From Candidatus Cloacimonadales bacterium (GTDB lineage: Bacteria; Cloacimonadota; Cloacimonadia; Cloacimonadales; JAFGVF01), in assembly GCA_963667035.1 (NCBI GenBank), contig OY762964.1, positions 128,001-192,000 on the forward strand: 64,000 nucleotides of DNA. The letters run 5' to 3'. This document shows positions 9,760 to 43,969 of the stretch, piece after piece. Under the pieces are notes generated by a model. The model was not told the origin of the DNA, ran no database searches, and worked only from the letters and a program-made list of their open reading frames with translations. Numbering within the stretch: position 1 is the stretch's first letter; every line of letters begins with the position of its first letter. Made by a program: the position numbers and the translations under genes.

Positions 9760-9845
9760 TGTTAACCTCATTCCGTTTTTATTATAATATAACTCCCTAG
9801 CATCTTCTGACAATTATCAATTGTCTTCAAGCACTTCCCCCTTAC

Positions 9846-9981
9846 CTCTCAGCAGTAATTCTTGGCAGACACTTGGGAAACACTTAGGCAACCCTTGGGT
9901 AATCCTTGGGTTAATTAGCAAGAAATTGCCAATTTATTACCAAGATAGTAGCAACTTGAAATCACTGATTACTGCTGAGAG
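9846..9981. repeat. Intergenic element with 14-bp terminal inverted repeats and internal 11-bp periodic units
   Basis: CTCTCAGCAGTAAT (9846-9859) / ATTACTGCTGAGAG (9968-9981); five CTT(G/A)G-starting 11-mers at 9861-9915; CAA at 9919, 9930, 9941, 9952. Homologous copy near 26064-26213. Confidence 0.85.
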
Positions 9982-10360
9982 AAGAAAGAGAACATAATTT
10001 GTCGGGAGTAAAAAGAAAAGTGTGTAAACCTCAATTCAAAAGGACTAAATGAGCAACCGCCTTATGATCCGGATTAGCTACTGAATATTATCATTCTTGG
10101 TACCTATGGTAGTCAGTCCAATGTTATAGATAGTTTTTGTAAGTAAGATTCACAAACTCCAAGCTTAATCATTTCAGCAAAAACTGTAAAATTATACTAA
10201 ATTTACTGAAAAAACACAAAATAAGGTGAAAATATGTTCCGAGAGCAAACATGATAATTAGCACAATTACATATTTTTCATATTTATAATGAACAATCAT
10301 TCAGTGAGGTGGTTAAGCTTATAATGCTTAAAGATAGTTATTTCGCCAGTTATTTGAGAG

Positions 10361-18131: not shown

Positions 18132-19288
18132 TGAAAGATTTATACCCACCAATTGTTGATGGAAAGTCAGTCTATGATATTGACAGTCAGAAGTATCTTA
18201 AGATGTGGCAAGGACCTCAACATCCGGGAGTAACCGGAAACATGAGTCTTGAACTGGATATCAGCGGAGACCAGATTATCAAGTGTACCACACATGTCGG
18301 TTATCTTCATAGAGGATTCGAGAAACTTATGGAAAGACGCAGATACATTAATTGCTTTCCTATTGTTTGCAGGATATGTGTTCCCGAACCGGATACTAAT
18401 GAATACTTGTTTGCAACGGCTACCGAAGAGCTACTCGGAATTGACATACCCGAAAAAGCCAAATGGCTTAGAACTCTTGATCTTGAGCTTTCCAGACTTG
18501 CCAGTTTCTTGATGTGGATTGGAGGACAAAGCGGTTCTTTCGGTTCAGGAACTGTTGCTCAATGGGCTATTGCTCACAGGGATTATGTTCTTGATTTATT
18601 CGAGGAACTTTCAGGAGCAAGAATCTATCACATGTATATTATTCCGGGAGGAGTTAGAGGTGATTTACCAAGAGGCTGGATTGCACATGCTGAGTCTGTA
18701 TTGGCTAAAGTAGAGAAACTTCTAGATGAGATTAAATATGTTCTCTTTAATAATTCAGTCTTTAAAACAAGAGCGGTTGGACTTGGCGTCATTACAAAAG
18801 ATATGATTGATAAATACGGTATAGTCGGACCTAATGCCAGAGGGAGCGGAGTTAAAAGAGATGTTAGAAAAGATACTCCTTATCTGGTATACGATAAACT
18901 TGATTTTGAGATTATCACCGAGACTGCCGGAGATGCTTATGCAAGAGCTGTTGTCAGATGGAAGGAAATGTATCAATCCATCGATTTAATCAGACAGATT
19001 ATTAATAAAATGCCGGTTGAAGGTGATATCTATACAACTTTGCCGAATGTCCTGCATCTGAAAGTTCCGGCAGGAGAAACTTATGTTAAAGCGGAATCAA
19101 CCAGAGGAGAGTACGGTTATTATATGGTCTCGGACGGAACACCTTTCCCAAGGAAAGTAACCGTTAGAGGTCCTTCATATTCTCATGCAATGGCACTACT
19201 TGAAGATTTAGCCGTAGGTTGCAACATTGCTGACACTCATGGTATGATGCTATCATTGCATACTTATCCCCCAGAGATTGAGAGGTAG
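18131..19288 (+). CDS. NuoD/MbxL-like subunit (no NiFe-binding C-terminal CxxC)
   Basis: GPQHPG, GYLHRGFEK, RICVPE, ES.RGE, RGPS; ends HTYPPEIER. Confidence 0.92.
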   Translation: MKDLYPPIVDGKSVYDIDSQKYLKMWQGPQHPGVTGNMSLELDISGDQIIKCTTHVGYLHRGFEKLMERRRYINCFPIVCRICVPEPDTNEYLFATATEELLGIDIPEKAKWLRTLDLELSRLASFLMWIGGQSGSFGSGTVAQWAIAHRDYVLDLFEELSGARIYHMYIIPGGVRGDLPRGWIAHAESVLAKVEKLLDEIKYVLFNNSVFKTRAVGLGVITKDMIDKYGIVGPNARGSGVKRDVRKDTPYLVYDKLDFEIITETAGDAYARAVVRWKEMYQSIDLIRQIINKMPVEGDIYTTLPNVLHLKVPAGETYVKAESTRGEYGYYMVSDGTPFPRKVTVRGPSYSHAMALLEDLAVGCNIADTHGMMLSLHTYPPEIER

Positions 19289-19293
19289 AAGTT

Positions 19294-21096
19294 ATGAGCT
19301 TAAAAGATGTAATATCTCCATTATATGTATGGAAAAGAGCTTTTGAAAAACCCTATTCCATAAAGACCCTGAAAGAACCGAGAATCGGAGCTGACAGATA
19401 CAGAGGATTTCACAAGAATGATTTGGATAAGTGCATTGGCTGTGGCTCATGTGCAGAGATATGCCAGAATGTATCGATTGAGATGAGACCTGTTTCCGAA
19501 ACTAAACACGGCGATAGCGGTCTTAGACCTAAAATAGATTACGGTCGCTGTTGTTGGTGTGCTCTTTGTGTGGATATATGCCCGTCAGGTTCCCTTACTA
19601 TGTCCAATGAATATATCTGGGTAGAAGAAGGTCTGGATAAAGATACAAGAGAAACATACTGCTATATTCCTGGAAAGGATGAGAAACCGTGGGATAATAA
19701 CGAAAAAGGCTACCAAAGACCTAAAGGTTATGAACTGACCAACTTGAAAAGAGTGGAAATGGATCAGTTACCGGCCGATGAAAGAGTAAAGTCATTCATT
19801 GAGATGGTTAAGGGCTTCTCTAAAGAGCAGGCAAAGAAAGAAGCCGACCGATGTATTGAGTGTGGTGTTTGTACCGCTACATGTCCCGGACACATGGATA
19901 TCCCAGGTTATATCAGAGCTATCAGAGAGGACAATCTGGAAGAAGGTTTCCGTATAATCTATGAGACAAATCCTCTTCCGGGAGTATGCGGAAGAATCTG
20001 TACAAGGCGTTGTGAAGAAGTATGCTCTCTTTCTCTTAGAGGAGAAGCGGTTTCAATAAGATGGTTGAAGAGATACATCATTGATAGTGTCGAGTCCATT
20101 GAGTATAAAGAGATTCTATCGGATAAGGTTCAACCTACCGGCAAGAAGATTGCTATTGTAGGAGCAGGTCCCGGTGGATTAAGTGCAGCATACTATCTAC
20201 TTCGTATGGGACATCAAGTCGAGATATATGAGAAGGATAGTGGTGCAGGCGGTATGCTCAGATATGGTATACCTGAATACAGATTGCCTTATGAGATGCT
20301 TGATAAAGACATAAACTTTATTGTCGAGTTAGGTGCCATACTTCATCTTGGTGTTCAGGTTGGTAAAGACATAAGCTTCGATAACCTTTATGATAACTAC
20401 GATGCTATTTTTGCCAGTATTGGTCTTTCAGACTCTTACAAAATAGGCATAGAAGGTGAAGACCTACCGGGAGTAACATCGGGACTTTCAGTGTTAAGAG
20501 ACGTTACGGAAGGGAAAGACCCTAACCTTGGAGATAATGTAGTCGTGATAGGTGGTGGTAACGTGGCAATGGATGCTGCAAGAACAGCTCGACACTTAGG
20601 GTGTAATGTTACGGTGCTTTATCGAAGAAGACTCGAAGATATGCCTGCTGATAAGGAAGAGATTCACGAAGCTATGGAAGAGGGAGTTTATTTCCAATTC
20701 CAAGGTATTCCGCTTAAGATTGAACAATCAGGTGACAAGCTTGATTTCATTTGGGGTGAAGCTGAAATGGTCGATAAAGGTGACGGCAAGCGTCCGGCTC
20801 CTGTTCTTATAGAAGGTAGTAAAAATGTGATTAAAGCTACCAAAGTCATTGCTGCGATCGGTCAGGAAGCTAACTACCAGTGGCTTGAAGGAGAAACTTC
20901 CAAGCAGGTTAAACTCGGTAAGCGTAATATTGAAGCTGACAGATGGGGTAAGACTGACGATCCCAAGATTTACGTTGGTGGAGATATGTTCAATCGAACT
21001 GCCGACGCTATCAGTGCTATTGCCGATGGACACCGTTCAGCACGTGCTATCGATAGTTATCTTAGCGGAGAAGAATTCCCTAAAAATAGATTTTAG
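19294..21096 (+). CDS. NuoI/MbxN 2[4Fe-4S] domain fused to GltD/NfnB-like FAD-NAD(P)H oxidoreductase
   Basis: CIGCGSCAEIC and CCWCALCVDICP; then EA.RCIEC...C...CP, CGRIC...CE..C, GAGPGG, GGGNVAMD..R, YRR. Confidence 0.92.
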   Translation: MSLKDVISPLYVWKRAFEKPYSIKTLKEPRIGADRYRGFHKNDLDKCIGCGSCAEICQNVSIEMRPVSETKHGDSGLRPKIDYGRCCWCALCVDICPSGSLTMSNEYIWVEEGLDKDTRETYCYIPGKDEKPWDNNEKGYQRPKGYELTNLKRVEMDQLPADERVKSFIEMVKGFSKEQAKKEADRCIECGVCTATCPGHMDIPGYIRAIREDNLEEGFRIIYETNPLPGVCGRICTRRCEEVCSLSLRGEAVSIRWLKRYIIDSVESIEYKEILSDKVQPTGKKIAIVGAGPGGLSAAYYLLRMGHQVEIYEKDSGAGGMLRYGIPEYRLPYEMLDKDINFIVELGAILHLGVQVGKDISFDNLYDNYDAIFASIGLSDSYKIGIEGEDLPGVTSGLSVLRDVTEGKDPNLGDNVVVIGGGNVAMDAARTARHLGCNVTVLYRRRLEDMPADKEEIHEAMEEGVYFQFQGIPLKIEQSGDKLDFIWGEAEMVDKGDGKRPAPVLIEGSKNVIKATKVIAAIGQEANYQWLEGETSKQVKLGKRNIEADRWGKTDDPKIYVGGDMFNRTADAISAIADGHRSARAIDSYLSGEEFPKNRF

Positions 21097-21104
21097 TATA
21101 AACC

Positions 21105-21165
21105 GGGGGCACGGACATCCCTGTCCGCTCTCCCTAATATGCCGGCTGGAAGCCGGCGTACCTGG
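21105..21165. repeat. REP-like palindrome pair
   Basis: CGGACAtcccTGTCCG and TGCCGGCTggaAGCCGGCGTACC; same family as the units at 26.5-29.2 kb. Confidence 0.75.
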
Positions 21166-21169
21166 TTAT

Positions 21170-21196
21170 AAAAGCGGACTTGATGTCCGCTTTTTT
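21170..21196 (+). terminator. Rho-independent terminator of the Mbx-like operon (probably bidirectional)
   Basis: AAAAGCGGAC-TTGAT-GTCCGCTTTTTT. Confidence 0.8.
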
Positions 21197-22161
21197 ACAA
21201 ATGAATGAAATACTTTATCCTCGAAGTTTTATTCAGCTCTAACCATTTATTTATAACTGGATTTCTAATCTTCCAATTGGATCGAAGGGCTTTTGCTAAT
21301 ATAATTAAATGCTTTTCGATAAAGATTCTGTTTAAGCTTGTAGGTGTTTTATCATAGTATTACTCAAGAATTTGGATGTAATAGTCTTGATACTTTTGGG
21401 GCCATTTTTTTTCTTTGAGAATATTGGAAAGAATGAGTGAAAGCGAAGATATGGCATATTCAAGTTTCGCTTCATCTTTTCTTAATATTTTCATTAATAA
21501 AGCAACAAAAGCAATCTCATTCTGATCTTTTTTATATAGTTTGACTAACAATGATTTGTTGATCAGTAGAAACTGATGCATATCACTTATCAATGAAAGA
21601 TCATTAAAAGAGAATAAGGAAGAACCTTTTTAATATTCTTTAAACTCCTCAAACTTGTTTAGGGATTCTTTTAATGCAAAATACATCTTATATATTTCCT
21701 CAACAGTCCAGTTTAAAAACACTTTTTTGTCTGTCCTTTTAAATGTATCTGATACATTAAAATAGTAACCTCCGTCACTTCTCCATTTCCCATTTGTATG
21801 AATACCATAAAAAAAACAACATTCTATCATTCTCTAGAAAGCTCTTACGAAACTTATTATCTATAGTAGGTCTATTGTCCGATTACTCCAAAATCAATTT
21901 CCAGTATTTCATATTATCTAAAGAAAAACTAGTGTCGTCAATCTTCTTTTTTATGTCTGATTTTAGAGATTTGCTAACTTCTAAATTGTAATAATGAATT
22001 CTCAATAAATCATTATTAGAAAGAGTCTCCTTTAATAATAATTCATTGATAACTGGTTCAATGTATCTATTAAAATTTTTATATATCTTGAATGCTGAGT
22101 AAACAAGTTTACCCATCACTCCTGAGAAGGCTTCGAAGGGTTCCATCATGAAGACTTCCAT
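21195..22161 (-). pseudogene. Decayed ~320-codon chimeric gene of unknown function
   Basis: Track ORFs 22161-21883, 21830-21630 and 21593-21360 join through three in-frame TAA codons (21883, 21630, 21360) and one frameshift in an A8 run (21809-21816). The frame ends at the TAA at 21195-21197. The first ~22 codons match the N-terminus of the 26721 protein. Confidence 0.65.
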
Positions 22162-22320
22162 TTTGGATTACCGTTATCGCCTGGGAGTGATCAACTCTCC
22201 TACGCGATCCTTTTCTTGTATTTACCCTTCTGCAGTTAGGTATTAGTTTTAGATGCTAAATGCTTAATTATAAATGCTGAATTGGTATTGTGTTTCTTGT
22301 TTTTGTTTTTAATTTAGCTT

Positions 22321-22441
22321 TTAGCATTTACAATTTAGCATTGTATTTGCATTCAACTATAGATTATAGACTATTAACTATCACCTGTGAGATCTCGTCT
22401 CACTATCCCTTGCTCACAATATGCCCGGTTTAGTCACAAAA
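22321..22441 (-). repeat. Left copy of conserved upstream motif plus AATGCTA-type heptamer block (inverted relative to 26314-26390)
   Basis: Reverse complement of 22398-22441 matches 26314-26357 at 37/44 nt; reverse complement of 22321-22342 matches 26369-26390 exactly. Confidence 0.85.
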
Positions 22442-22523
22442 TGGTAAAGTTTTTTATCCCCTGTTGAATTACAATTCTATAAATAAAAGAGTATATAGTT
22501 TTTTTCTAATTGCCTCTTTCTAT

Positions 22524-25382
22524 TTAGTTTTGTCTCTTTCGAGTTTTTAAACCTAAGAAATATTTATAAAGATATGCTATGCTATATTTTTTCCTTCCCC
22601 CATAAGTATGCTTTTCAGAGATTATACCATTTACAATTAACAAATCTTTTAAATCGTCTGGATTATCATGTGTAATATTCTGGTTCATTCTTATTATTTC
22701 TCTGAGAATCTCATAAAACTCTCTCTTTAAAAAATGATTATACTTATATTTACTATAATGGGGCAAATCTCTGAAATAGTCGATCACTACTTGTAAATCC
22801 TTATTCCCAGCTTCAGCAGCAAGGTCATTAAAATGATTTTTCACAGCTTCACCTCTAGCATCTGGAGAAGCATAGTACAGTGGTGATAGAATTGGGTTAA
22901 CATTACTATCATTACTAATCATAAATATATCTATAGCTTTCTTGATTAAATCAAGTAAAGGTCTTATACTCATAGTTGAATCTGCATTCTTTAAATTCCT
23001 AAAGAACCATTCATAACTTGATCCGTAAAATGCTATATTATCCCCTCTTCTATCAGCCGATTCTCCAAAAAATGAGTTAACATACGGCAACAAAATATCT
23101 TTATTGACAGGTATCTGATTATTATCAAAACTTCTTTCACTGGTTCCCTTTTTGACAAGATTATTGTTCTCATAATATTTTAACATACCCCTAAAGTCAT
23201 TTCCTACAGAAGCAAAAACCCATTTAAAGAAGAAACTCATGATTTCATCTTTATCCCACTCTAAATCAATGTTCTGAGATTTTAATTCTTGCTTATTGGT
23301 AATATTTCTCAATTTATTGAATAAATCTGTTCTAATAAATATTTTTGAGTAAATGTTTTCAAATGGGGATGTTCTCCAATACTTTATCAAGGGAGAAACA
23401 CACTTATCCCAATGAATTGGTAAAGCAACAAAATCTAATTGGTCAATCAGTATTAATAGCTTTGTTTTCCTTTCGTAAAGCCAGTTATCTACATATTTTA
23501 AACACTTTTCAAAGTAATTTACAACCTCATAATTGTTAATACACTTATCAAAATGAATTTTCATCTCACTTGTGTCAGTTATTGGTTTCATATATTTTTC
23601 AATAAAAGAACGCTCAATAGGTATTTTCCTATTTTTAATCTCAATAAATATTACATGCCATAAGTAAACTATCCAGAAGGCATTAAAGTATACTTCAGGA
23701 TCTTTTATTTCATCTACTTTTATCCATTTAGCAATTGTGAATAATCTATCTCGTTTATGATCACTCTGAACGGAAACAAGAGGAATCGTAATAATTTTAT
23801 CCATTATTTGAGCTTTACTCTTTAACTTCATCATGAACTTTTCATTTTGCAATGCCTTGTATAAGAAGGTTTTCCCTGTTCCTTTACTACCAATGAGCAA
23901 GAAATGCTTTTTTTGGAAAATATTATACATTTTAACTCTGTAGTAAAAATACTTATCAAGATATTCATCTGTGAAGATAATATCTTCAGCATACAAATCT
24001 AAACACTCTTCTTTCATTGTATTAAGTAGGTTTTTTCTTACATCTAAAACATTCTTATCTGAGACATTAGTAATTGCATTAATTCTATCAACATCTTCTT
24101 TTGTTTCTTCCAGTAGCTGCTTAGATATTGAATCCTTTAAACGATGTTGCAGTGAATTAAATAAATCGTTATAGTCATTAAATGCTTTCCTCGAAATTAA
24201 ATGTATAAAATTGTCTTTATTCTCAATGGAAGTTCCAATTTTACTTAACGTACTATTTCTAGTAATATTAAAGCACTCAATGATTGGAGGATCATCATCA
24301 ATATCAGCTTCAAATAGTTCTAAGATATATTGATCAATATCTTCTTTGAATTCATTGAATAGAGACCAATCATCATTAATTGCATTAACTATAAATGATT
24401 CTTTATTTACTCTGTTCTTTAAAGAATTTTCAATAAAAAAATATAGACCTGGTAAAGTTTGCTTATTGTTTCCGAAAAATCCAACGTTTATTTTTGATAA
24501 TCCGTTTGCTAAAAATGCAAAAATATCATTAAATCCTGTCCTACTATCTACTAATATAACATCAGGAGAATATTTACTACTTTCAAGCTTATTTAACATC
24601 AAAGTAAATTTATTTACAAGATGTTCTGAATCAGTAATATCTAAACGAGCTAAACCTTCTAGATAATGATCAATATTTCGATTTAATAAGTGATTATCAC
24701 CTTCAATAATACTTTCATCTAAATTCCCTGCTAACATCATATAAATTGAGCCTTCTCCTGAATACTCTTTATCAATTTCAAGTACATAATCCTCTACATT
24801 CACATTTTGCTCATATTGTGAATCCATTAAGTATTCCACAATCCCATTATGATGCTGCTGTGAAGATTGCCCTATACCGTAAAAGTTAGAATAACCTGGT
24901 GCTTCAAAATCACAATCTAAAATTAGCACTTTGTACTTACAATGAATTGACAAGTAAGATGCGAAACTTGCAAGGGTTGTACTTCTTCCAAGACCTCCTT
25001 TGTAACTGTAAAAAGTTACAATAGGTGTTTGCTGATATTGCATCAATTCAGGACAATTAAATTTGTCAATAATATGTGAAAGTCGTCTTCTGTATCCTAA
25101 ATCAATACGATTAACTTGAGAATTTGGATCTTTCAATTTATTAAACAAATCACTGTAATAAGAGTCATGCTGTAATCTTTCTTCATCGATAAGTTCAAAA
25201 AACGCTTTAGTTTTAATAAATACTTTTTCCACTCGTTTGTCATAACACTCATTATGAAAAATTATCACGTTAATTTGACCATTTACATTCAAAGTTATTC
25301 TGAAATCTACGATTAATCTTTCTTGTACAAAACGAGAAAGCTCATTGTTTAAATAATTTATTTGCTTGAAAACAAGTATCAT
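22524..25382 (-). CDS. Large double P-loop ATPase: ParA/MinD-like KGGxGR-variant domain plus second P-loop NTPase; putative defence protein
   Basis: TFYSYKGGLGRST, LDCDFEAPG, VDSRTGF; second Walker A GSKGTGKT and Walker B-like LILIDQLD; KIFIRTD. Confidence 0.8.
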   Translation of the reverse strand: MILVFKQINYLNNELSRFVQERLIVDFRITLNVNGQINVIIFHNECYDKRVEKVFIKTKAFFELIDEERLQHDSYYSDLFNKLKDPNSQVNRIDLGYRRRLSHIIDKFNCPELMQYQQTPIVTFYSYKGGLGRSTTLASFASYLSIHCKYKVLILDCDFEAPGYSNFYGIGQSSQQHHNGIVEYLMDSQYEQNVNVEDYVLEIDKEYSGEGSIYMMLAGNLDESIIEGDNHLLNRNIDHYLEGLARLDITDSEHLVNKFTLMLNKLESSKYSPDVILVDSRTGFNDIFAFLANGLSKINVGFFGNNKQTLPGLYFFIENSLKNRVNKESFIVNAINDDWSLFNEFKEDIDQYILELFEADIDDDPPIIECFNITRNSTLSKIGTSIENKDNFIHLISRKAFNDYNDLFNSLQHRLKDSISKQLLEETKEDVDRINAITNVSDKNVLDVRKNLLNTMKEECLDLYAEDIIFTDEYLDKYFYYRVKMYNIFQKKHFLLIGSKGTGKTFLYKALQNEKFMMKLKSKAQIMDKIITIPLVSVQSDHKRDRLFTIAKWIKVDEIKDPEVYFNAFWIVYLWHVIFIEIKNRKIPIERSFIEKYMKPITDTSEMKIHFDKCINNYEVVNYFEKCLKYVDNWLYERKTKLLILIDQLDFVALPIHWDKCVSPLIKYWRTSPFENIYSKIFIRTDLFNKLRNITNKQELKSQNIDLEWDKDEIMSFFFKWVFASVGNDFRGMLKYYENNNLVKKGTSERSFDNNQIPVNKDILLPYVNSFFGESADRRGDNIAFYGSSYEWFFRNLKNADSTMSIRPLLDLIKKAIDIFMISNDSNVNPILSPLYYASPDARGEAVKNHFNDLAAEAGNKDLQVVIDYFRDLPHYSKYKYNHFLKREFYEILREIIRMNQNITHDNPDDLKDLLIVNGIISEKHTYGGRKKYSIAYLYKYFLGLKTRKRQN

Positions 25383-25391
25383 TATTTCTCC

Positions 25392-25898
25392 TTAAGGTGT
25401 TATGTGCTGGAGTATCTCGCTTCTATATTTTGTAGCAATGTTTAAAAAAGTATCAACATCATTTTCAGATATAGTTTGAGTGTTATTACAATATCGAGTC
25501 TTAATATTCCAACTTTTTACAATTGAAGGAATTACTTTGTTATATGTTTTGTCCAATAGTAAGACTTGTTTCGAAGATCGGCAATTACAAAGGATCCATT
25601 GTAATTTTTTTTCTATATCATGCCTATAAATCTGCAACACACTTGGATTTTGTCTATTTCTAAAAGCAACTGTACTTTCATTGAGGCTGTATAAAGAACT
25701 ACTTCTAGGATAATTAGATAACTCATATATGCAATATGAAGATATGCATTCTATAATGTGTCCAGCTAGATAGAATACATTGAGATTAATCATGTTTCTT
25801 TCGGAATTACTGGCAAGATTATTTCTTACTTTAACTAGCTCTTGGCAGTTGAACATAATTCTATAGGCAGAATCTTTGTAAACAAGATGACTACTCAT
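25392..25898 (-). CDS. HEPN-like protein (putative RNase effector)
   Basis: FYLAGHIIEC, RHDI and W...RY motifs typical of HEPN-like helical proteins; RBS AGGAG before the ATG at 25898; 9 bp from the ATPase gene. Confidence 0.65.
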   Translation of the reverse strand: MSSHLVYKDSAYRIMFNCQELVKVRNNLASNSERNMINLNVFYLAGHIIECISSYCIYELSNYPRSSSLYSLNESTVAFRNRQNPSVLQIYRHDIEKKLQWILCNCRSSKQVLLLDKTYNKVIPSIVKSWNIKTRYCNNTQTISENDVDTFLNIATKYRSEILQHITP

Positions 25899-26063
25899 TC
25901 TACTTGCACTCCTTAACACAAATTGATAACTTGAGTTTCTAATGTCAACTTATTTTTAGGTTGTATTATAAACTAGAAAAGTAAAACCTCTTTTTTTACA
26001 ATTGCTTAGAAGCATATATCCCAATTCTATTAAATCAAGCTAGTCTTCCTCATTTCTCCCTCA

Positions 26064-26213
26064 TCTCCCGGCAGTAATTCCTGTGAGACACTAGGGAAAC
26101 CCTTGTGAAACACTCGGGTAATCCTTGGGTTAAATACCAAGAAGTAACCAATTTGTTAATAAGTTAAAATTAAAATGAGAACACTAATTACTACAGAGCG
26201 TAGAGAGGGAGAA
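26064..26213. repeat. Second copy of the 11-bp periodic inverted element
   Basis: Shares GCAGTAATTC, GGGTAATCCTTGGGTTAA, CCAATTT and CACT.ATTACT with 9846-9981; five 11-mers at 26080-26134. Confidence 0.8.
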
Positions 26214-26256
26214 GAAATGCAAATGAAGAATAAAAGATTAAGAATGAAGAATTAAA

Positions 26257-26481
26257 CCACCCCGTCGACAAGTCTCCACCCTTCCATAGAGGGGAATTAA
26301 AAAAAGTTTGGGGTTTTGTGACTAAAACGAGGATTTTGTGAGCAAGGATAAGTGAGAGAGGAAAATAAAATGCTAAATTGTAAATGCTAAATGCTTAATG
26401 TTAAAAGCAAAGAGAATGCAAGATGCAAAATGATAAGAAACCATCCCGTCGACAAGTCGCTACCCCTCCACAGAGGGGAAT
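26257..26481. repeat. Two copies of a ~41-nt REP-like unit CCAYCCCGTCGACAAGTC...CCCYTCCA.AGAGGGGAAT
   Basis: Copies at about 26257-26297 and 26441-26481. Confidence 0.8.
26314..26390 (+). repeat. Right copy of conserved upstream motif plus heptamer block
   Basis: TTTTGTGACTAAAACGAGGATTTTGTGAGCAAGGATAAGTGAGA then AATGCTAAATTGTAAATGCTAA. Confidence 0.85.
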
Positions 26482-26514
26482 GGTTCTACTTCACTAAAGC
26501 TATGTTCTGACTTT

Positions 26515-26650
26515 ATAGCTCTGCGAGCTATGTGCAAGTGAGGGTACTTGCACTACAAACTGGGTACGCCGGCTTCTAGCCGGCAACTCTTTGCGGACAG
26601 GATGTCCGCATTCCGTTAAGATGCGAGCTGGAAGCTCGCGTACCCGGTAA
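26515..26650. repeat. Composite multi-hairpin REP/BIME-like unit, copy A
   Basis: Consecutive stems ATAGCTC/GAGCTAT, GTGCAAGT/ACTTGCAC, GCCGGCT/AGCCGGC, GCGGACA/TGTCCGC, GCGAGCT/AGCTCGC. Confidence 0.9.
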
Positions 26651-26720
26651 ACTTAGGAGTACATTGACTGTGTCAATGCACTCCGAAACAATTATAAACC
26701 AATCAAATAAGGAGATCATT

Positions 26721-27176
26721 ATGAAAAGTTATTTAGGATTCCCTTTCAAATCGATGTCCGGCAAACATGGAAAGCTTGTGTATTGCTGTGATGAAGATGG
26801 AAACATCATGTGGGTTCGAGAGTTTGTAATGCCGGAGATTACCGAGCATAATCACTACATGGGCAATGTTTCTAAACAGCTTGCAGTTTTCAAAAGTCTG
26901 CTCAATCCGGAGTATATCAATGATTTGAAAGATTATACCGATCGGTACAAACTAAGTTACCGACACAAATGTAGACCACCGAGTTATTCGGCGTTACTTA
27001 GAAAGATGATGTTTCAACTCAAAAAGAATGGTTATCCCGTTGATTTGTTAACAGTAACCCCGCAAGTAGTAGTAGATATCGGATTACCAATAAGGACAGT
27101 GAAAGAAGCAATTGAAAACGAATTGTTACCAATGATTCCGCGATATGATGATTTGACGCATTGGATTGTGGAGTGA
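26721..27176 (+). CDS. Hypothetical protein with N-terminal PFxxxSGKxGKLVY motif (reminiscent of DUF6266-like proteins)
   Basis: Strong RBS AAGGAG before the ATG at 26721; 151 aa. Family resemblance is from recall only. Confidence 0.7.
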   Translation: MKSYLGFPFKSMSGKHGKLVYCCDEDGNIMWVREFVMPEITEHNHYMGNVSKQLAVFKSLLNPEYINDLKDYTDRYKLSYRHKCRPPSYSALLRKMMFQLKKNGYPVDLLTVTPQVVVDIGLPIRTVKEAIENELLPMIPRYDDLTHWIVE

Positions 27177-27186
27177 AAAGGGGCGC

Positions 27187-27544
27187 CCCCTTTAGGGTCG
27201 TTGGTCATTGGGTACTCGTTTCCATGGGCTAAAGCACCATGGCTATTAATAGGTTATCCCTTCAGGATGGGGATATTAGTACTGCAACTCCCCTGAGTTG
27301 CTGTGACGACGAAGTCGGCAGATATAAAAAATCAACTAAAGTATATTTAGAATGTGATATAGCTCTGCGAGCTATGTGCAAGTGAGGGCACTTGCACTAC
27401 AAATCGGGACCGCAGGCTTCTAGTCGGCAACTCTCTGCGGACAAGATGTCCGCGTTCCTACAAGATGCGAGCTAGAAGCTCGCGTACCTGGTAAGATGTC
27501 TGCGTTCCTACAAGATGCGAGCAGGATGCTCGCGTACCCGGTAA
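27187..27544. repeat. Composite repeat block 1 (CCATGGG-type palindrome, linker, multi-hairpin copy B at 27359-27544)
   Basis: Directly repeated at 28734-29155, including an identical GATATTAGTACTGCAACTCCCCTGAGTTGCTGTGACGACGAAGTCGGCAGATATAAAA. Confidence 0.9.
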
Positions 27545-27545
27545 A

Positions 27546-27570
27546 ATGGCGACCGATATACGGTCGCCAT
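27546..27570 (-). terminator. Hairpin terminator after the 28183-27581 gene
   Basis: ATGGCGACCG-ATATA-CGGTCGCCAT, followed by a T-run on the minus strand. Confidence 0.7.
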
Positions 27571-27580
27571 ATTTACATGA

Positions 27581-28183
27581 TTAACATTTAAACTCGTCTT
27601 TGATTACAATCTCTAAGGAACTATCCCTCTCCGGATTAAAGCTAACAGAGAAACCTACATCAATTGTATTCTTTAGATACTTATGTAATTGGGGACTATT
27701 CTCTTCAAAGGATGCAATCAATCTTCTGAAGGTGTTGTACATACTGTGGTTGACTTTCCTGATAAATGAATCCAAGTATTTCTCTTTACAGGTCATACTA
27801 CCTATAAGATTGCCAATCTTATTCATTTTATCCCTATAATATTCAGCTTCAACATCTGAGTTTTCCATACTCTTCTGCCAACGCTCTTCTTCCAGTTCTT
27901 TGTAGATACTATACAATAAACGACCACAAGCTTGTTCTTCTTCCGCCATTTTGTAACACCTTTTTATATAGTCTCCCCGCATTACATTCAGATAATCAAG
28001 ATAGGGAATAGGGTTGACATCAAAAGCTTTGAAGAGTAGATTTAGTCGTGACATCGGAATTGATTGTCCGGGATGTATAAGTACTTCAATAAAATATTGA
28101 ATTACTTCCACTTTGAGAAAGATAGGAAACGGGTGTTCCTGTGTTAAGATATACCCATGACCTATAGTAATTACATAAATCAC
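27581..28183 (-). CDS. Hypothetical helical protein resembling the C-terminal putative DNA-binding domain of large ATPase regulators
   Basis: GTG start with RBS GGAGG. Motifs Y..EVLIHPGQ.I and RK......F.R.I..F....PQL..YL.NTI..G...SF.PE recall that domain (recall only). Confidence 0.55.
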   Translation of the reverse strand: MIYVITIGHGYILTQEHPFPIFLKVEVIQYFIEVLIHPGQSIPMSRLNLLFKAFDVNPIPYLDYLNVMRGDYIKRCYKMAEEEQACGRLLYSIYKELEEERWQKSMENSDVEAEYYRDKMNKIGNLIGSMTCKEKYLDSFIRKVNHSMYNTFRRLIASFEENSPQLHKYLKNTIDVGFSVSFNPERDSSLEIVIKDEFKC

Positions 28184-28288
28184 GATATCCTCCCAATGAG
28201 GGTAAAAGAGTTATAGTCTTGAGATGAGGATACGCTTTAACGATTTACGGGTTTGGGCAGTGAATCCTTAACAACTACCCTTATCTCC

Positions 28289-28387
28289 CTATGAATGCGA
28301 CGACAAATGTTTTAAATCCAAGGCTGGATTTACCGTTGTTAAAGAAGCCACAACGGGCCATAAAATTACGGCATAACAATTGCTCAT
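28289..28387 (-). CDS. Putative 32-aa small protein MSNCYAVILWPVVASLTTVNPALDLKHLSSHS
   Basis: Strong RBS AAGGAGG before the ATG at 28387; in frame with the downstream gene but separated from it by stops. Confidence 0.3.
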   Translation of the reverse strand: MSNCYAVILWPVVASLTTVNPALDLKHLSSHS

Positions 28388-28527
28388 AACTCCTCCTTTA
28401 TAATATAATGCTATTTTTGTACAAATCGTTTGGATTGTCAAATAGAATATTTATGTCTAAAATGTTGGATGGTATAAGAAAGCACAACATGTACGATAAC
28501 TCCCTTTAGTTGCTGTGATGAGAAAAT

Positions 28528-28713
28528 ATAGCTCTGTGAGCTATGTGCAAGTGGGGGTGCTTACACTACAAACCGGGACCGCAGGCTTCTAGCCGGCAAC
28601 TCTTTGCGAACAGGATGTTGGTGTTCCTACAAGATGCGAGCTGGAAGCTCGCGTACCCAGTAAGATGTCTGCGTTCCTGCAAGATGCGAGCTGGAAGCTC
28701 GCGTACCCGGTAA
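28528..28713. repeat. Composite multi-hairpin REP/BIME-like unit, copy C
   Basis: Same hairpin order as copy A with a duplicated GCGAGCTGGAAGCTCGCGTACC unit. Confidence 0.9.
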
Positions 28714-28733
28714 GATTCAGACTGGATATTCGA

Positions 28734-29155
28734 CCCCTTTAGGGTCGGTGTTTATTGGGTATCCGCTACCATGGGTTAAAACCCATGGCTATTAATAGGC
28801 TATCCCTTCAGGATAAATAACAAGGATTCAAAAGTATAAGAACCATAGCTACTATCAGGTTTTACCTTCAGGATTGTGATATTAGTACTGCAACTCCCCT
28901 GAGTTGCTGTGACGACGAAGTCGGCAGATATAAAAGTTCAGTTAATCAACTAAAGAATATTTGGAAAGGGATATAGCTCTGCGAGCTATGTGCAAGTGGG
29001 TGCTTGCACTACAAACCGGGACCGCCGGCTTCTAGCCGGCAACTCTTTGCGAACAGGATGTTGGTGTTCCTACAAGATGCGAGCTGGAAGCTCGCGTACC
29101 CGGTAAGATGTCTGCGTTCCGGCAAGATGCGAGCAGGATGCTCGCGTACCCGGTA
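28734..29155. repeat. Composite repeat block 2 (includes multi-hairpin copy D at 28973-29155)
   Basis: Direct repeat of 27187-27544 with an internal partial duplication. Confidence 0.9.
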
Positions 29156-29233
29156 GGATGGAGATATTTGTACTGCAATTAATTCATAAGTTATTAATCA
29201 AACAGTAATAAAAAATTTGACCTCCCACATGCC

Positions 29234-29272
29234 TTAACATAGAATTAACTAAATCTTAATTGCCAATTAACA
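29234..29272 (+). promoter_or_regulatory. Pho-box-like direct repeats upstream of phoP/phoB
   Basis: TTAACA, TTAACT, TTAATT, TTAACA at 29234, 29245, 29256, 29267 (exact 11-bp spacing), matching the TT(A/T/C)ACA PhoP consensus. Confidence 0.75.
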
Positions 29273-29320
29273 GCTGATTAGTATTTTTAACTGAAAAGAC
29301 TAAAACAAAGCGGTAGGAAT

Positions 29321-30016
29321 ATGGAAAACAAAAAACTAATATTCATTGTTGAGGATGAGGAAGATATCAGAGAATTGATATCATTACATTTGCAGGATGC
29401 CGGATTCCAGACCGAAGGGTTTGAAACCGGAAAAGAGATGTTTGCAAGACTTGAAGATGATATGCCTGACCTCTTAATGTTGGATTTAATGCTACCCGAT
29501 ATGGATGGAATGGACATTTGCCGCCATATTCGTCAATCCGGTAAATACGAACAGTTACCAATCATTATGCTTACTGCAAGAACCGATATTACTGATAAAG
29601 TTATGGGACTTGAGTTTGGAGCTGATGATTATTTAACCAAACCTTTCTCACACAAAGAGCTATTGGCAAGAATTAAAGCTATTCTGAGAAGAACAAAGCA
29701 CGTTCCTAAGAAAAGTATTTCGGAAGACATTCTTAAAATGGACAAGAACAGATTTGAAGTTTATGTACATGGCGAGAAAATCGACTTAACAACAACAGAA
29801 TTCAAGATACTGGAACTGCTTTTATCAAGACCGGGTTGGGTATTCTCTCGTGAAAAGATTTTAGATTTTCTGTGGGGAACCGATAAGATAGTTATCGATA
29901 GAACAGTCGATGTGCATATACGCCATTTAAGACAGAAAATGGGCGAGTTGAGTTCAAATATCAAAAATGTTAGAGGGATTGGTTACAAATATGACCCTGA
30001 GAAAACTGTCGATTAG
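29321..30016 (+). CDS. phoP: OmpR/PhoB-family response regulator (PhoP/PhoB-like)
   Basis: REC domain (VEDE, LDLMLP, GADDYLTKPF) plus winged helix (RTVDVHIRHLR, VRGIGY); upstream of a PhoR-like kinase. Confidence 0.8.
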   Translation: MENKKLIFIVEDEEDIRELISLHLQDAGFQTEGFETGKEMFARLEDDMPDLLMLDLMLPDMDGMDICRHIRQSGKYEQLPIIMLTARTDITDKVMGLEFGADDYLTKPFSHKELLARIKAILRRTKHVPKKSISEDILKMDKNRFEVYVHGEKIDLTTTEFKILELLLSRPGWVFSREKILDFLWGTDKIVIDRTVDVHIRHLRQKMGELSSNIKNVRGIGYKYDPEKTVD

Positions 30017-40474: not shown

Positions 40475-40610
40475 ACTTTATACTTGCCATTTCCATGAAT
40501 AGAAATAAGCTATCACTATTAAGATGGCGAGTCACACATAAAAGTATCCACCCTAGGAAAGTTAAAGTTTTACCAAGAAAAATACTACGTAAACTATCCC
40601 TCCACCCACA

Positions 40611-40790
40611 CGTTACTCCCATGAACAATATTTACTCAATCCTTACTCATCTCTTACTCAACACTTACTCAAAACATGATTTTGGAGTTGGAAATTAGTA
40701 AGATGTCTGGGAGTGTTATATCTCAATTCTGTCTATGTTGCTCAAGTGCATAACGGGAGAAGGGAGTAAAAAAGAAAAGTGTGTAAACCT
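40611..40790. repeat. Intergenic element with four 11-bp TTACTCA units and a tail shared with 10004-10031
   Basis: 11-mers at 40631, 40642, 40653, 40664; GGGAGTAAAAA(A)GAAAAGTGTGTAAACCT at 40762-40790 and 10004-10031. Confidence 0.75.
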
Positions 40791-41036
40791 TAATATGCGA
40801 TTAAGCATATAATAGCTTTAATGCATATTTTGAGTGTTTTTTATACTGATTATGCTATATAATCAAGCTATATATGCATGTTGATACATTCTTTATGGGG
40901 AGACTAAATTAAAAAAGTATTATTTGACAATATAAATCCTGATAGAACAAATAGAATTGTGGCGTTTATAAAAGTATCTAAAAATTCTAGTAAAATTCAT
41001 GGTATTATTGGTAGTTATTTTATAAAAGAGGTAAGT

Positions 41037-42323
41037 GTGAAAAAGAGATATTGGTTTTTATTTATAATCATGTTATATGAATCCCTTTGTTTCGGTCAGG
41101 AATACTTTGAAGAGTTGTTTAGTTCAGAGTCAAGAATAAAGGGATTTCAGGAAGACTCAACTGGAGTAATGTATCTTGCAACCCGTGATTGTTTATTTAA
41201 ATCAGTAGATAATGGTAGTTCATGGCAACAGATTTTTGATGAAGCGGGAGTTGAGACAATAGGTGTTAATTCTCTTGACTGTATCTATGCACTTTCATAT
41301 CCACCATTACTTAGTATGCATTATTCAATTGATCAAGGGCTTACCTGGAATGTAATGAATAGACCAACCGGCTATGATCTTGTTGATCTTTTTATAACAT
41401 CAGATGATACAATGTTTTTGACCGGTTGGGGCTGTATTTATAAATATGACAGTGATAATGAAGATTGGGTTCAGGTTTTAGCATGTACTTATGAAGAGAT
41501 TGTGACTTCGATTGTTAGTAATGAAAATAATGTTCTTTTTGCCAGTTCCACAAATTTTGAGGGCTCAGGAACTACAGGAGGAATATACCGATCTGATGAC
41601 CGGGGGGACACATGGGAGCATATCGGATTGGATTACTATTTTGTCCAAGACTTAACGATAAATTCAAATGGAGAGTTTTTTGCTTGTACTTCCGGGCATT
41701 CAACAACAGGTGATACAGTGATTATGCATTCAATAGATCAGGGAGAAACTTGGAATCAGTGTTTCAGTTATGCAAGCCAGATGTTTACTATCATAAACGA
41801 TTCAAATGATAATCTGTATGTTGGAACGGGAAATTATCCTATTAGTTGGGCAGGAGTTCAGTTCTCGCAAGATAATGGTCAAACTTGGAATCAGCTTCAG
41901 ACAAACCTGATACCCAATAATGCCCAGGTTGACTATCTCTACTGTGATTCCGATAATTACTTATATGCAATAGTTAACGGAGATTATCCTCCTTACACAT
42001 TATTGAAGAGTCTGGAACCGACAACGACTACAGTTATCGACGAAGATTTTGTGGCTCCTGTAAATCAAATTTCTAATTACCCAAACCCCTTTACAGACGA
42101 AACAACGATTGTTCTAAGACTTCCATCCAAGAGTATAAGAGAAGCAAAAGTCGAAATATTCAATGTGAGAGGGCAGAAGATTAGAGAAATACCCGTAGAG
42201 CAACAGGAAGTAAAATGGGACGGGAGAGATGATCAATGTCAAAAAGCCCCTTCAGGAGTCTATTTCTATAGAATAAAAACAGAAGATAGTATTTTGACAA
42301 AGAAATGTATTTTAATGAAGTAG
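41037..42323 (+). CDS. Secreted BNR/Asp-box beta-propeller protein with FlgD/T9SS-like C-terminal domain, paralogue 1
   Basis: Repeated S.D.G.TW Asp-boxes; NYPNPF...IFNVRGQKIR...WDG.D......SGVYFY. GTG start after GAGGT, as in paralogue 2. Confidence 0.85.
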   Translation: MKKRYWFLFIIMLYESLCFGQEYFEELFSSESRIKGFQEDSTGVMYLATRDCLFKSVDNGSSWQQIFDEAGVETIGVNSLDCIYALSYPPLLSMHYSIDQGLTWNVMNRPTGYDLVDLFITSDDTMFLTGWGCIYKYDSDNEDWVQVLACTYEEIVTSIVSNENNVLFASSTNFEGSGTTGGIYRSDDRGDTWEHIGLDYYFVQDLTINSNGEFFACTSGHSTTGDTVIMHSIDQGETWNQCFSYASQMFTIINDSNDNLYVGTGNYPISWAGVQFSQDNGQTWNQLQTNLIPNNAQVDYLYCDSDNYLYAIVNGDYPPYTLLKSLEPTTTTVIDEDFVAPVNQISNYPNPFTDETTIVLRLPSKSIREAKVEIFNVRGQKIREIPVEQQEVKWDGRDDQCQKAPSGVYFYRIKTEDSILTKKCILMK

Positions 42324-42590
42324 AAAACTGCAAGCATTCTATCAAGCTTTGATGGTTGCTACTCTCGGAGATACATAAACATAAGGTATCTATATAAGGT
42401 CTGCAAAAATGAATCTTTTAGATTGTACGGCTCTTTACTATGAAAGAAATTGTTAATAATGAAAAAAATAAAAAACATTTGACAATAAAAATCATAACTA
42501 ATTATATCTAATTGTGGCGTTTAAGAATGTATCTAAAAGTACTAGTAAAATTCATAGTATTATTGGTAGTTATTTTTTAAAGAGGTAAGT

Positions 42591-43868
42591 GTGAGCAAGA
42601 GACATTGGTTTTTATTTATGATACTGTTATGTGCATCCCTTTGTTTCGGTCAGGAACACTTTGAGGAGTTGTACTCTTCGGATTCAAGAATATATGATTT
42701 TGGAATAGACAATCTGGGGAATCTTTACTTAACAAATAATGGTGGTCTCCATCGTTCAACAGATAATGGGAATAGTTGGGAATTAATTTTTAATGATCTA
42801 CAACCTGTAAAAATTTGCTTTACTCCTACAAATGGTTTATACATGTATAATCTTTATAATTATTATTTTTCTCCTGATATACAAACTTGGGATATGATTT
42901 CTACTCTTAACCTTATTGGAACAAGAGATATATTCCTAGATTCACTAGGAAATCTATTCATTTACGGGTGGCGAGGTATTGCAAAATCAATAGATGGAGG
43001 TTGTTCATGGCAACAAACATTTTCTACAAACGTAGGAGAGGAATTCAATACTTTTATTGAGTCATCAGATGGCACATACTACGCCGGTTCTACAGCATAT
43101 GCTGCAGACACAGAGAACCCGGGAGGTTTTTACAGATCCTTCGATCAGGGAGATACATGGGAGAATATCGGATTGCCAAATTATTACATCCGATCTATAA
43201 CTGAAACATCCAACAACGAGTTGTTGGCCTGTACTTCCGGACATACAACAACAGGTGCAAGAGTGATTATGCATTCAACTGACCAGGGAGCAACCTGGAA
43301 TCAGTGTTTTAGTTATACCAGTCAGATGTTTACTATCATAAACGATTCTAATGATAATCTGTTTGTTGGAACGGGAAATTATCCTGTTAGTTGGGCAGGA
43401 GTTCAGTTCTCGCAAGATAATGGTCAAACTTGGAATCAGCTTCAGACAAACCTGATATCTAATAATGCCCAAGTTGATTATCTCTACTGCGATTCAGATA
43501 ACTATTTATATGCAATAGTTAACGGAGATTATCCTCCTTACACATTATTGAAAAGTCTGGAACCAACAACGACCACTGTTATCGAAGAAGATTTTGTAGT
43601 TCCTGTAAATCAGATTACTAATTTCCCAAACCCCTTTACAGACGAAACAACGATTGTTCTGGAATTTCCATCAAAAAGCGTACAAAGTGCAAAGTTAGAA
43701 ATATTTAATGTGAGAGGGCAGAAGATTAGAGAAATACCCGTAGAGCAACAGGAAGTAAAATGGGACGGAAGGGATAAAAGGGGCAATAAGGTTCCATCCG
43801 GTATTTATTCCTATAGAATACAAACGGAAGCCGGTATTTTAACAAAGAAATGTATATTAATGAAGTAA
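42591..43868 (+). CDS. Secreted BNR/Asp-box beta-propeller protein with FlgD/T9SS-like C-terminal domain, paralogue 2
   Basis: Same architecture; C-terminal half nearly identical to paralogue 1. Confidence 0.85.
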   Translation: MSKRHWFLFMILLCASLCFGQEHFEELYSSDSRIYDFGIDNLGNLYLTNNGGLHRSTDNGNSWELIFNDLQPVKICFTPTNGLYMYNLYNYYFSPDIQTWDMISTLNLIGTRDIFLDSLGNLFIYGWRGIAKSIDGGCSWQQTFSTNVGEEFNTFIESSDGTYYAGSTAYAADTENPGGFYRSFDQGDTWENIGLPNYYIRSITETSNNELLACTSGHTTTGARVIMHSTDQGATWNQCFSYTSQMFTIINDSNDNLFVGTGNYPVSWAGVQFSQDNGQTWNQLQTNLISNNAQVDYLYCDSDNYLYAIVNGDYPPYTLLKSLEPTTTTVIEEDFVVPVNQITNFPNPFTDETTIVLEFPSKSVQSAKLEIFNVRGQKIREIPVEQQEVKWDGRDKRGNKVPSGIYSYRIQTEAGILTKKCILMK

Positions 43869-43969
43869 AATATTATGACTCTTTTAGAAAGAATTTTCTT
43901 GCTAATTACAAAACTGGATACTTTAAAGGGTTACCTCCCACTATCACTATTAAGACATCGGGAATAGAT

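Follow-up and report, generated by a model that had tools for sequence, protein, structure and literature searches.

The window, by which we mean the whole 64,000-nucleotide stretch analysed here (G000:C1:128001-192000, where G000 is the source genome, a single contig of 3.10 Mb), carries one copy of a gene frame that recurs in the Cloacimonadota and is apparently undescribed. Comparison with the sister species G001 showed that the frame consists of a left F gene, a matched box, variable defence-like cargo, an 11-bp-periodic array, a second matched box, a right F gene and a gene G, where F denotes gene 26721-27176 and its family and G denotes gene 27581-28183. The same alignments showed that the F pair and G form a frame whose cargo, like its neighbours on the chromosome, changes from one orthologous copy to another. 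We regard the system as real and recurring on the evidence of sequence comparison, and we infer its mechanism. The reading that we prefer, which we believe and doubt in equal measure, is that the 44-nt motifs inside the two boxes are twin promoter/operators read by G, that the right F binds its own array family, and that the array edge is a site of DNA gain, loss and rejoining.

The window locus and its changing cargo

The left F gene, a member of the type-A clade, starts at 22161 on the reverse strand and persists as a 5′ stub (22088-22161). Its homology to other F genes stops after 23-24 codons, and the open reading frame continues to 21883 through unrelated DNA; the place of its 3′ part is taken by 889 bp of foreign AT-rich DNA with broken reading frames (21200-22087; 27.6% GC). 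The orthologous left F in G001 is intact (153 aa), with 95% identity across 157 nt at the 5′ end. The right F (26721-27176, forward strand) is intact at 151 aa and under purifying selection, with a dN/dS of 0.04 against its G001 ortholog. An earlier note on this DNA was therefore correct in describing a gene that is intact on the right and truncated on the left. Given that the left F is cut off, the window copy of the frame is probably decaying.

The left box, M44L, occupies 22346-22457 on the reverse strand, with its core at 22398-22441, and is 85% identical to the G001 copy; the right box, M44R, lies at 26314-26357 on the forward strand. Between them are two cargo genes, both on the reverse strand. 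Cargo gene 2 (22524-25382) encodes a 952-aa ATPase with a KGGVGR motif and a second P-loop domain, which resembles the PADLOC families PDC-M28B/C and matches NF047398 with 113.7 bits, above the cut-off. Cargo gene 1 (25392-25919) encodes a protein of about 168-175 aa that is HEPN-like according to a language-model lead (score 0.92; HEPN makes up 21% of the cluster), and searches of Pfam, PADLOC and NCBIfam gave no match to it. Hence, of the HEPN-ATPase pair originally proposed, the ATPase is borne out by a profile match, whereas the HEPN assignment comes from the language model and finds no counterpart in the profile libraries. To the right of cargo gene 1, in the forward orientation, is array E1 (26028-26232), a member of array family A3 with an 11-bp period; A3 has 8 copies in G000 and 10 in 800 kb of G001. 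G (27581-28183, reverse strand; 200 aa) is predicted from a weak fold lead to be a DNA-binding regulator. The earlier list of parts had omitted the array and had not recognised G as a third, fixed part.

Several repeats in the locus are passengers. These include a REP-like repeat at 26254-26297 (forward strand; second copy at 26438-26481) and a composite REP-like repeat of a genome-wide family at 26513-26703 (forward strand), with further copies at 27357, 28526 and 28969. At least four classes of REP-like repeat are densely clustered on either side of G, between 27184 and 29178. An Rfam scan of 21000-29400 gave no real match. The window had been described as free of integrases and transposases. 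This stands for tyrosine recombinases and Y1 transposases, neither of which was found when the window was searched for them, and the 13 Y1 transposase matches in G000 are at loci other than the F loci. Two short IS481-like end remnants are present at 40525-40596 (left end) and 43877-43940 (right end). The two remnants are 3.3 kb apart and enclose genes 40959-43868, an arrangement that could be a composite relic.

Back-to-back F pairs occur three times in G000 (the window, L002 and L007) and five times in G001. L002 carries PDC-S06 and an HD-CE ATPase, and L007 carries PDC-M04A/B together with an NA37 gene pair. The G001 frame orthologous to that of the window, L042, carries LmuA, LmuC and LmuB (Lamassu); a second G001 frame, L043, has F and G genes that match those of L002, and carries a methyltransferase and a LmuB-like set. 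The right F is 85-88% identical between L042 and the window, both boxes and the array are kept, and the left F is intact in L042. Cargo is thus not invariant, with an ATPase pair in the window and LmuA/LmuC/LmuB in its ortholog, and the suggestion of a cargo hotspot is supported both by this exchange and by the other cargo of the two further G000 pairs. L042 adjoins a XerC-like gene, and the counterparts of the genes that flank the window frame lie at two other sites in G001. Since these genomes are heavily shuffled anyway, differing flanks are no proof that the frame travelled in one piece. In family f3, tandem F genes likewise frame defence-like genes.

Other F loci differ from this plan. 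At L046:6174-12467 the genes between the two F copies are not defence genes but lipoprotein-like genes and large genes for secreted proteins; this block shares 87% identity with G000 1564942-1571498, a site without an F pair. F genes or fragments adjoin another F without cargo at L047:6942-7891, L059:5453-6038, L153:7111-7998 and L157:7104-8171. Slot cargo had no PADLOC match at L062:7278-9618, L044:6129-9614, L007:9662-12246 and L043:7097-8832; one of these sets is weakly uracil-DNA-glycosylase-like and one is the NA37 pair, and they are candidates for new defence systems.

The F family and its periodic arrays

F proteins are about 150 aa long. G000 carries 11 intact copies along with several fragments, G001 has 24 matches, and F was found in 97 of 151 genomes of the phylum at between one and at least 25 copies each (348 representatives at E 0.001), in agreement with the earlier proposal of a repeated motif-plus-gene family. 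Across seven cross-species pairs, dN/dS ranges from 0.04 to 0.13. Residues K2, R33 and Y72 of F are nearly invariant, and further F paralogues in G000 include those at 852178, 202180, 930943 and 1580390. Comparison of F with Pfam, PADLOC, PHROGs, NCBIfam and PDB sequences gave nothing usable. A structure model with a pLDDT of 95 had no Foldseek match at E 0.001 in PDB or BFVD; in VIA, its top match was TraM (48 residues superposed at rmsd 2.5, Z 3.5), followed by other ribbon-helix-helix proteins at Z 2.7-3.2. No catalytic or DNA-binding fold was thus recognised in F, which does not prove its fold to be new. Two candidate identities were rejected: HMG-box, for which 2 of 131 members gave weak matches and fold searches gave no support, and DUF6266 (PF19781), for which there was no profile match at F positions in five genomes at E 10. 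Two single-sequence queries against viral contigs, phages and plasmids gave no F relatives, and a search of the published literature, confined to main texts outside subscription journals, returned no paper that deals with F, with G or with the arrays.

A genome scan for periodic arrays detected 113 in G000 and 2 in a shuffled genome. BLAST from oriented references gave 112 G000 arrays, in seven families of 35, 21, 18, 10, 10, 9 and 8 copies plus one stray copy. The arrays are 100-200 bp long, many have dyad symmetry, and most are oriented towards gene starts (76 and 80 of 112). Stability of a folded DNA hairpin is strong in families A0 and A6 and weak in A3, A4 and A5, so a folded hairpin is not a common requirement, and we rejected it as such. 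Two further arrays in the window, at 9810-9991 (A3) and 40592-40771 (A5), have no F beside them. Close pairs of an A4 and an A0 array occur in G000 at 400453/400674, 1092117/1092286, 1487226/1487391, 1509907/1510085 and 2767546/2767715, two of the five being less than 1 kb from a Y1 transposase gene.

The arrays pair with F family by family. For six of the seven G000 array families, exactly one copy lies upstream of an intact F, although the spread of six F-adjacent arrays over six different families has a p of 0.024 only. Among 33 F genes of the two species, an array is present within 1.3 kb upstream of 21 of the 24 non-type-A genes, as compared with one of the nine type-A genes. Family size also follows the presence of F, in a comparison that is based on two species and a draft. 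A2, A4 and A5 have 21, 9 and 11 copies in G000, whereas the complete G001 sequence has 2, 1 and 3, and no F was found beside these among the 22 of 24 F matches examined there. Conversely, 800 kb of G001 contain 4-7 copies each of A7, A8, A9, A10 and A11, and in each of these families one copy is followed by an F; A7, A8, A9 and A11 were found in G001 only, and A10 has a single copy in G000. Some observations count against the pairing. A1 has 18 G000 copies, none of them beside an F, and its F is found in G001 only; the array next to several F genes is the sole copy of its kind, and three of the non-type-A genes lack an array altogether. Genome G054 has at least 25 F matches and one doubtful array in 100 kb. 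Elsewhere, array density per 200 kb sampled was 7.3 in G000, 0 in G004 (one or two F genes) and one doubtful array in G024 (no F), and density per 100 kb was 5 in G014, 4 in G033 and 2 in G013.

Iteron origins and parC-type centromeres carry direct repeats in helical phase, as do the arrays with their 11-bp period. The arrays might accordingly be iteron-type origins of integrated primase-helicase replicons, with F as an origin-binding or incompatibility protein and solo arrays as leftover origins, a reading that we consider rather unlikely. It is favoured by inverted DnaA-box-like words that adjoin array families A6, A7, A8 and A11; such words directly follow the array in the leaders of G000 930943, L051, L055, L056 and L057 and at array A8. 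However, E1 lacks a DnaA-box-like word, the arrays are present in more than 100 chromosomal copies, no Rep or ParM gene adjoins them, and F and G match no Rep family.

The replicon reading gains from a link between F and primase-helicases. In two complete slots of family f4, the first gene inside the slot encodes a PriCT-2/DUF3987 protein, in one case with a BT4734-like N-terminal match. Primase-helicase relatives are present in 35 of 151 genomes, including 30 of 68 in f4, but with the query used none was found in the eight genomes of f1, the family to which the window belongs. Among 150 listed of 716 F matches, which makes these counts lower bounds, at least 24 of 65 primase-helicase loci are within 11 kb of an F, at least 17 within 3 kb and at least 18 divergent; by our own arithmetic, about 2% would be expected within 3 kb by chance. 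BT4734-like/PriCT-2/DUF3987 modules are described, in PMC11724360, as replicases of integrated mobile elements. Given this description and the genes in the f4 slots, the frame may descend from such elements or receive them. Like those elements, the f4 F-framed slot holds a gene of this kind along with defence genes. The published element has an integrase and a tRNA site, whereas neither was recognised in the open reading frame listings of the two complete f4 slots. Against the replicon reading, no primase was found in f1, no array was detected in 30 primase loci (about 1.5 kb beyond each match), in L238 or in L153, and the single-sequence searches of phages, plasmids and viral contigs yielded no F relative. 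L238 is a viral contig in which, by eye, a primase-helicase precedes Mu-type-transposase-like and ATPase-like genes; a 12.3-kb piece of it contains no F.

Array positions were also compared with gene order, using 391 orthologs between G001:C4:100001-900000 (800 kb) and G000. Synteny is broken at 97 of 390 junctions at about 79% DNA identity, an extreme shuffling of gene order for a single genus, and arrays are present at 49 of the 97 breaks. Among gaps of at least 300 bp, 48 of 55 with an array are breaks, as compared with 30 of 73 without (Fisher p 7e-8); among gene-free gaps the numbers are 16 of 20 and 12 of 26 (p 0.03), and the excess of breaks at arrays is present in every gap-size class of 150 bp or more. 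A few collinear sites have an array in one species only, including one insert of about 211 bp; comparison of filled and empty sites between G000 and G001 revealed no clear target duplication, as would be expected of a MITE, at this divergence.

Insertion sequences cluster at the arrays as well. An IS481-like element of 1389 bp, whose NF033577 match is below cut-off, is present in G000 at 202613-204001 and in five other full copies, with apparent 15-bp target duplications at three. IS481-like loci are within 150 bp of an array in 21 of 25 cases, where the share of intergenic DNA would predict 11%, although several of these neighbours are duplicates of one event. Four IS481-like loci share one junction, indicating that arrays were copied together with the IS scar. 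At 15 loci the IS481-like element is on the side of the array away from the would-be F, the side on which the window cargo also begins. We rejected the idea that the IS481-like element carries arrays as a composite, since the array may adjoin one or the other end of the IS and the outer boundaries are uneven.

These associations could also arise passively if F genes were ordinary host genes, with arrays, REPs, insertion sequences and defence genes simply accumulating in long neutral intergenic DNA. Consistent with this, many unrelated repeat classes crowd these regions, long array-free gaps are often breaks too (the 30 of 73 above), and arrays have no clear 5′/3′ bias for foreign neighbours (25 versus 18). 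Passive accumulation nevertheless leaves unexplained why there is one F per array family, why family size tracks F, why boxes match and why a G lies by each pair, and the break excess in each gap-size class from 150 bp upwards argues against it. We consider it quite unlikely.

The matched boxes and gene G

The reverse complement of 22398-22441 and the right box core at 26314-26357 are identical at 37 of 44 positions, as the earlier note had claimed. When the left core was compared with 360 G000 intergenic regions, it scored 88 against itself, 53 against the right arm, 31 against a third, weaker copy at genome position 586.9 kb, and at most 25 against the rest. Given these scores, the likeness is not due to chance. 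Five of the seven M44 copies that were counted in G000 and G001 by BLAST and alignment lie upstream of an F gene, so that motif and gene family do co-occur in two genomes; at locus L049, which is free of inserted repeats, the 44-mer ends 22 nt upstream of the F start. We conclude from its position that the 44-mers are likely twin promoter/operator boxes of the two F genes, one of the functions originally suggested. A search of JGI metagenomes for the 44-mer pattern gave no match.

Other F leaders have a comparable element, a pair of short direct repeats with a spacing of about 20 bp that are mostly followed by a TATA-like word. Boxes other than M44L/M44R include the CGTAAG box and the TTTATTCC box; two types other than M44 were found before F genes only (4 of 4 and 2 of 2). 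With common repeats masked, the element shared by paired leaders is clear in seven of ten cases (scores of 50-108), marginal in two (36-39) and absent from one (24), against a baseline of 15-36 for unrelated leaders; higher cross scores came from orthologous frames or from the same F type. Boxes thus agree within a pair and vary from one pair to the next.

The 22-nt block is present in exact copies at 22321-22342 (reverse strand) and 26369-26390 (forward strand), as reported, but it does not belong specifically to the cassette. It belongs to an AATGCTA-type heptamer tandem, a generic repeat whose core 10-mer, AATGCTAAAT, is found 39 times in G000, and it is absent from the G001 arms of the orthologous frame. 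Given that it is a common tandem and is not kept in G001, we consider the block a passenger. STRR-like heptamer repeats occur next to four-helix-bundle genes, and the block is a tandem of this sort. In L044 and L063, four-helix-bundle-like genes adjoin heptamers (by eye); the window locus has no such gene, and there the heptamer is only a passenger.

A G paralogue converges on the right F in all three F pairs of G000. G proteins are 71-74% identical between frames with the same box and 22-34% identical between frames with different boxes. Box type thus tracks G type, and G may be the reader of the boxes; the agreement of box type with G type could come from co-descent alone. G had no match in family libraries. 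With a structure model, OmpR/PhoB-type winged-helix domains took six of the first 27 Foldseek ranks at E 0.77-2.1, which is not significant, and VIA matched only a helical hairpin.

The matched boxes could instead be terminal inverted repeats of a cassette moved by an outside transposase or recombinase, with F marking the landing site. The boxes do face outward and are specific to each pair, even type-A′ F orthologs having different boxes that each match the partner, and two copies of M44 are not followed by an F. Nonetheless, boxes also precede unpaired F genes, one of them at 22 nt from the start codon; the arms are 79-84% alike, homology continues raggedly beyond the box, and there is no target duplication. 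In addition, L062 has M44 at one end only, its order being array E1, four other genes and M44L, without F. We find this reading very doubtful.

The earlier note had also raised the possibility of an invertible segment. Contigs of three runs from one sample, which drop rare forms, included one of 16,084 nt that spans 19000-26089 without differences, and showed no joint linking the arms. We disregarded an apparent 22497-to-30971 joint in two runs, which extends over just 20 letters to one side. Inversion of 22.4-26.3 kb by a recombinase acting at the 44-mers is highly improbable, despite the inverted repeats of 44-58 nt that enclose the cargo and the three intact tyrosine recombinases elsewhere in G000, since no tyrosine recombinase was found in the window, array E1 lies within the repeats on the right-F side in both species, the contig is unbroken with no joint between the arms, and the arms differ by seven mismatches.

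Proposed mechanism and comparison with known systems

We return to the preferred reading, in which F, its array and G act together. G would bind the boxes and act on both F genes of the pair. Each non-type-A F would bind its own array family and be needed for upkeep or spread of the array, a role like that of RAYT for REPs but through a different protein. The F-bound array would expose adjacent DNA to recombination or insertion by other enzymes, with strand exchange carried out in trans by host or IS enzymes, and defence genes that land between two F leaders would be retained. The frame may have derived from an integrated primase-helicase element, with the source lineage of the window keeping the frame only.

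A more far-reaching version, which we put forward tentatively as a possibility, is that F is the first of a new class of proteins that propagate their own 11-bp-periodic arrays, one paralogue per family. The arrays would then be a selfish repeat system apart from RAYT and programmed landing sites for defence cargo, insertion sequences and primase replicons; they would drive the shuffling of gene order, and G would coordinate the pair through the operators.

RAYT-REP systems are the closest parallel to the pairing of F and arrays: in Nunvar et al. 2010 (PMC2817692), they consist of a small gene beside a palindromic repeat, with solo repeats in intergenic DNA whose abundance tracks the gene. Array abundance similarly tracks the matching F for six of seven large G000 families and five of five families enriched in G001, with A1 as the exception, in two species. 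Unlike RAYTs, which carry an HUH/Y1 domain, F has no Y1_Tnp match, nor was there one among the families of 131 members. RAYT genes have their cognate repeats, inverted, on either side, whereas the cognate array of F lies upstream only, and the F repeat is a 100-200 bp array of 11-bp period that mostly faces gene starts.

The changing cargo resembles that of P2 and P4 elements, in which conserved genes frame interchangeable anti-phage systems, according to Rousset et al. 2022 (PMC9122126). F frames hold Lamassu, PDC-S06, PDC-M04 and type II methyltransferases, defence being assigned by profile matches, and the same frame holds different cargo among relatives (the window and L042; L002 and L043). 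By contrast, the F frame consists of two paralogues of an unannotated family and G, is present several times per chromosome with differing neighbours, and includes no recognised phage or integrase gene; F has no PHROG family.

The F frame offers a way to locate defence genes in a phylum from which few systems have been described, and PADLOC has no match for several of the genes in its slots. It also connects F, a strongly conserved multi-copy protein that lacks annotation, with a large family of periodic repeats in intergenic DNA. If F maintains the arrays, the two would form a second protein-repeat system next to RAYT-REP, one whose protein had no match in fold searches. Because F and arrays pair family by family, binding is directly testable.
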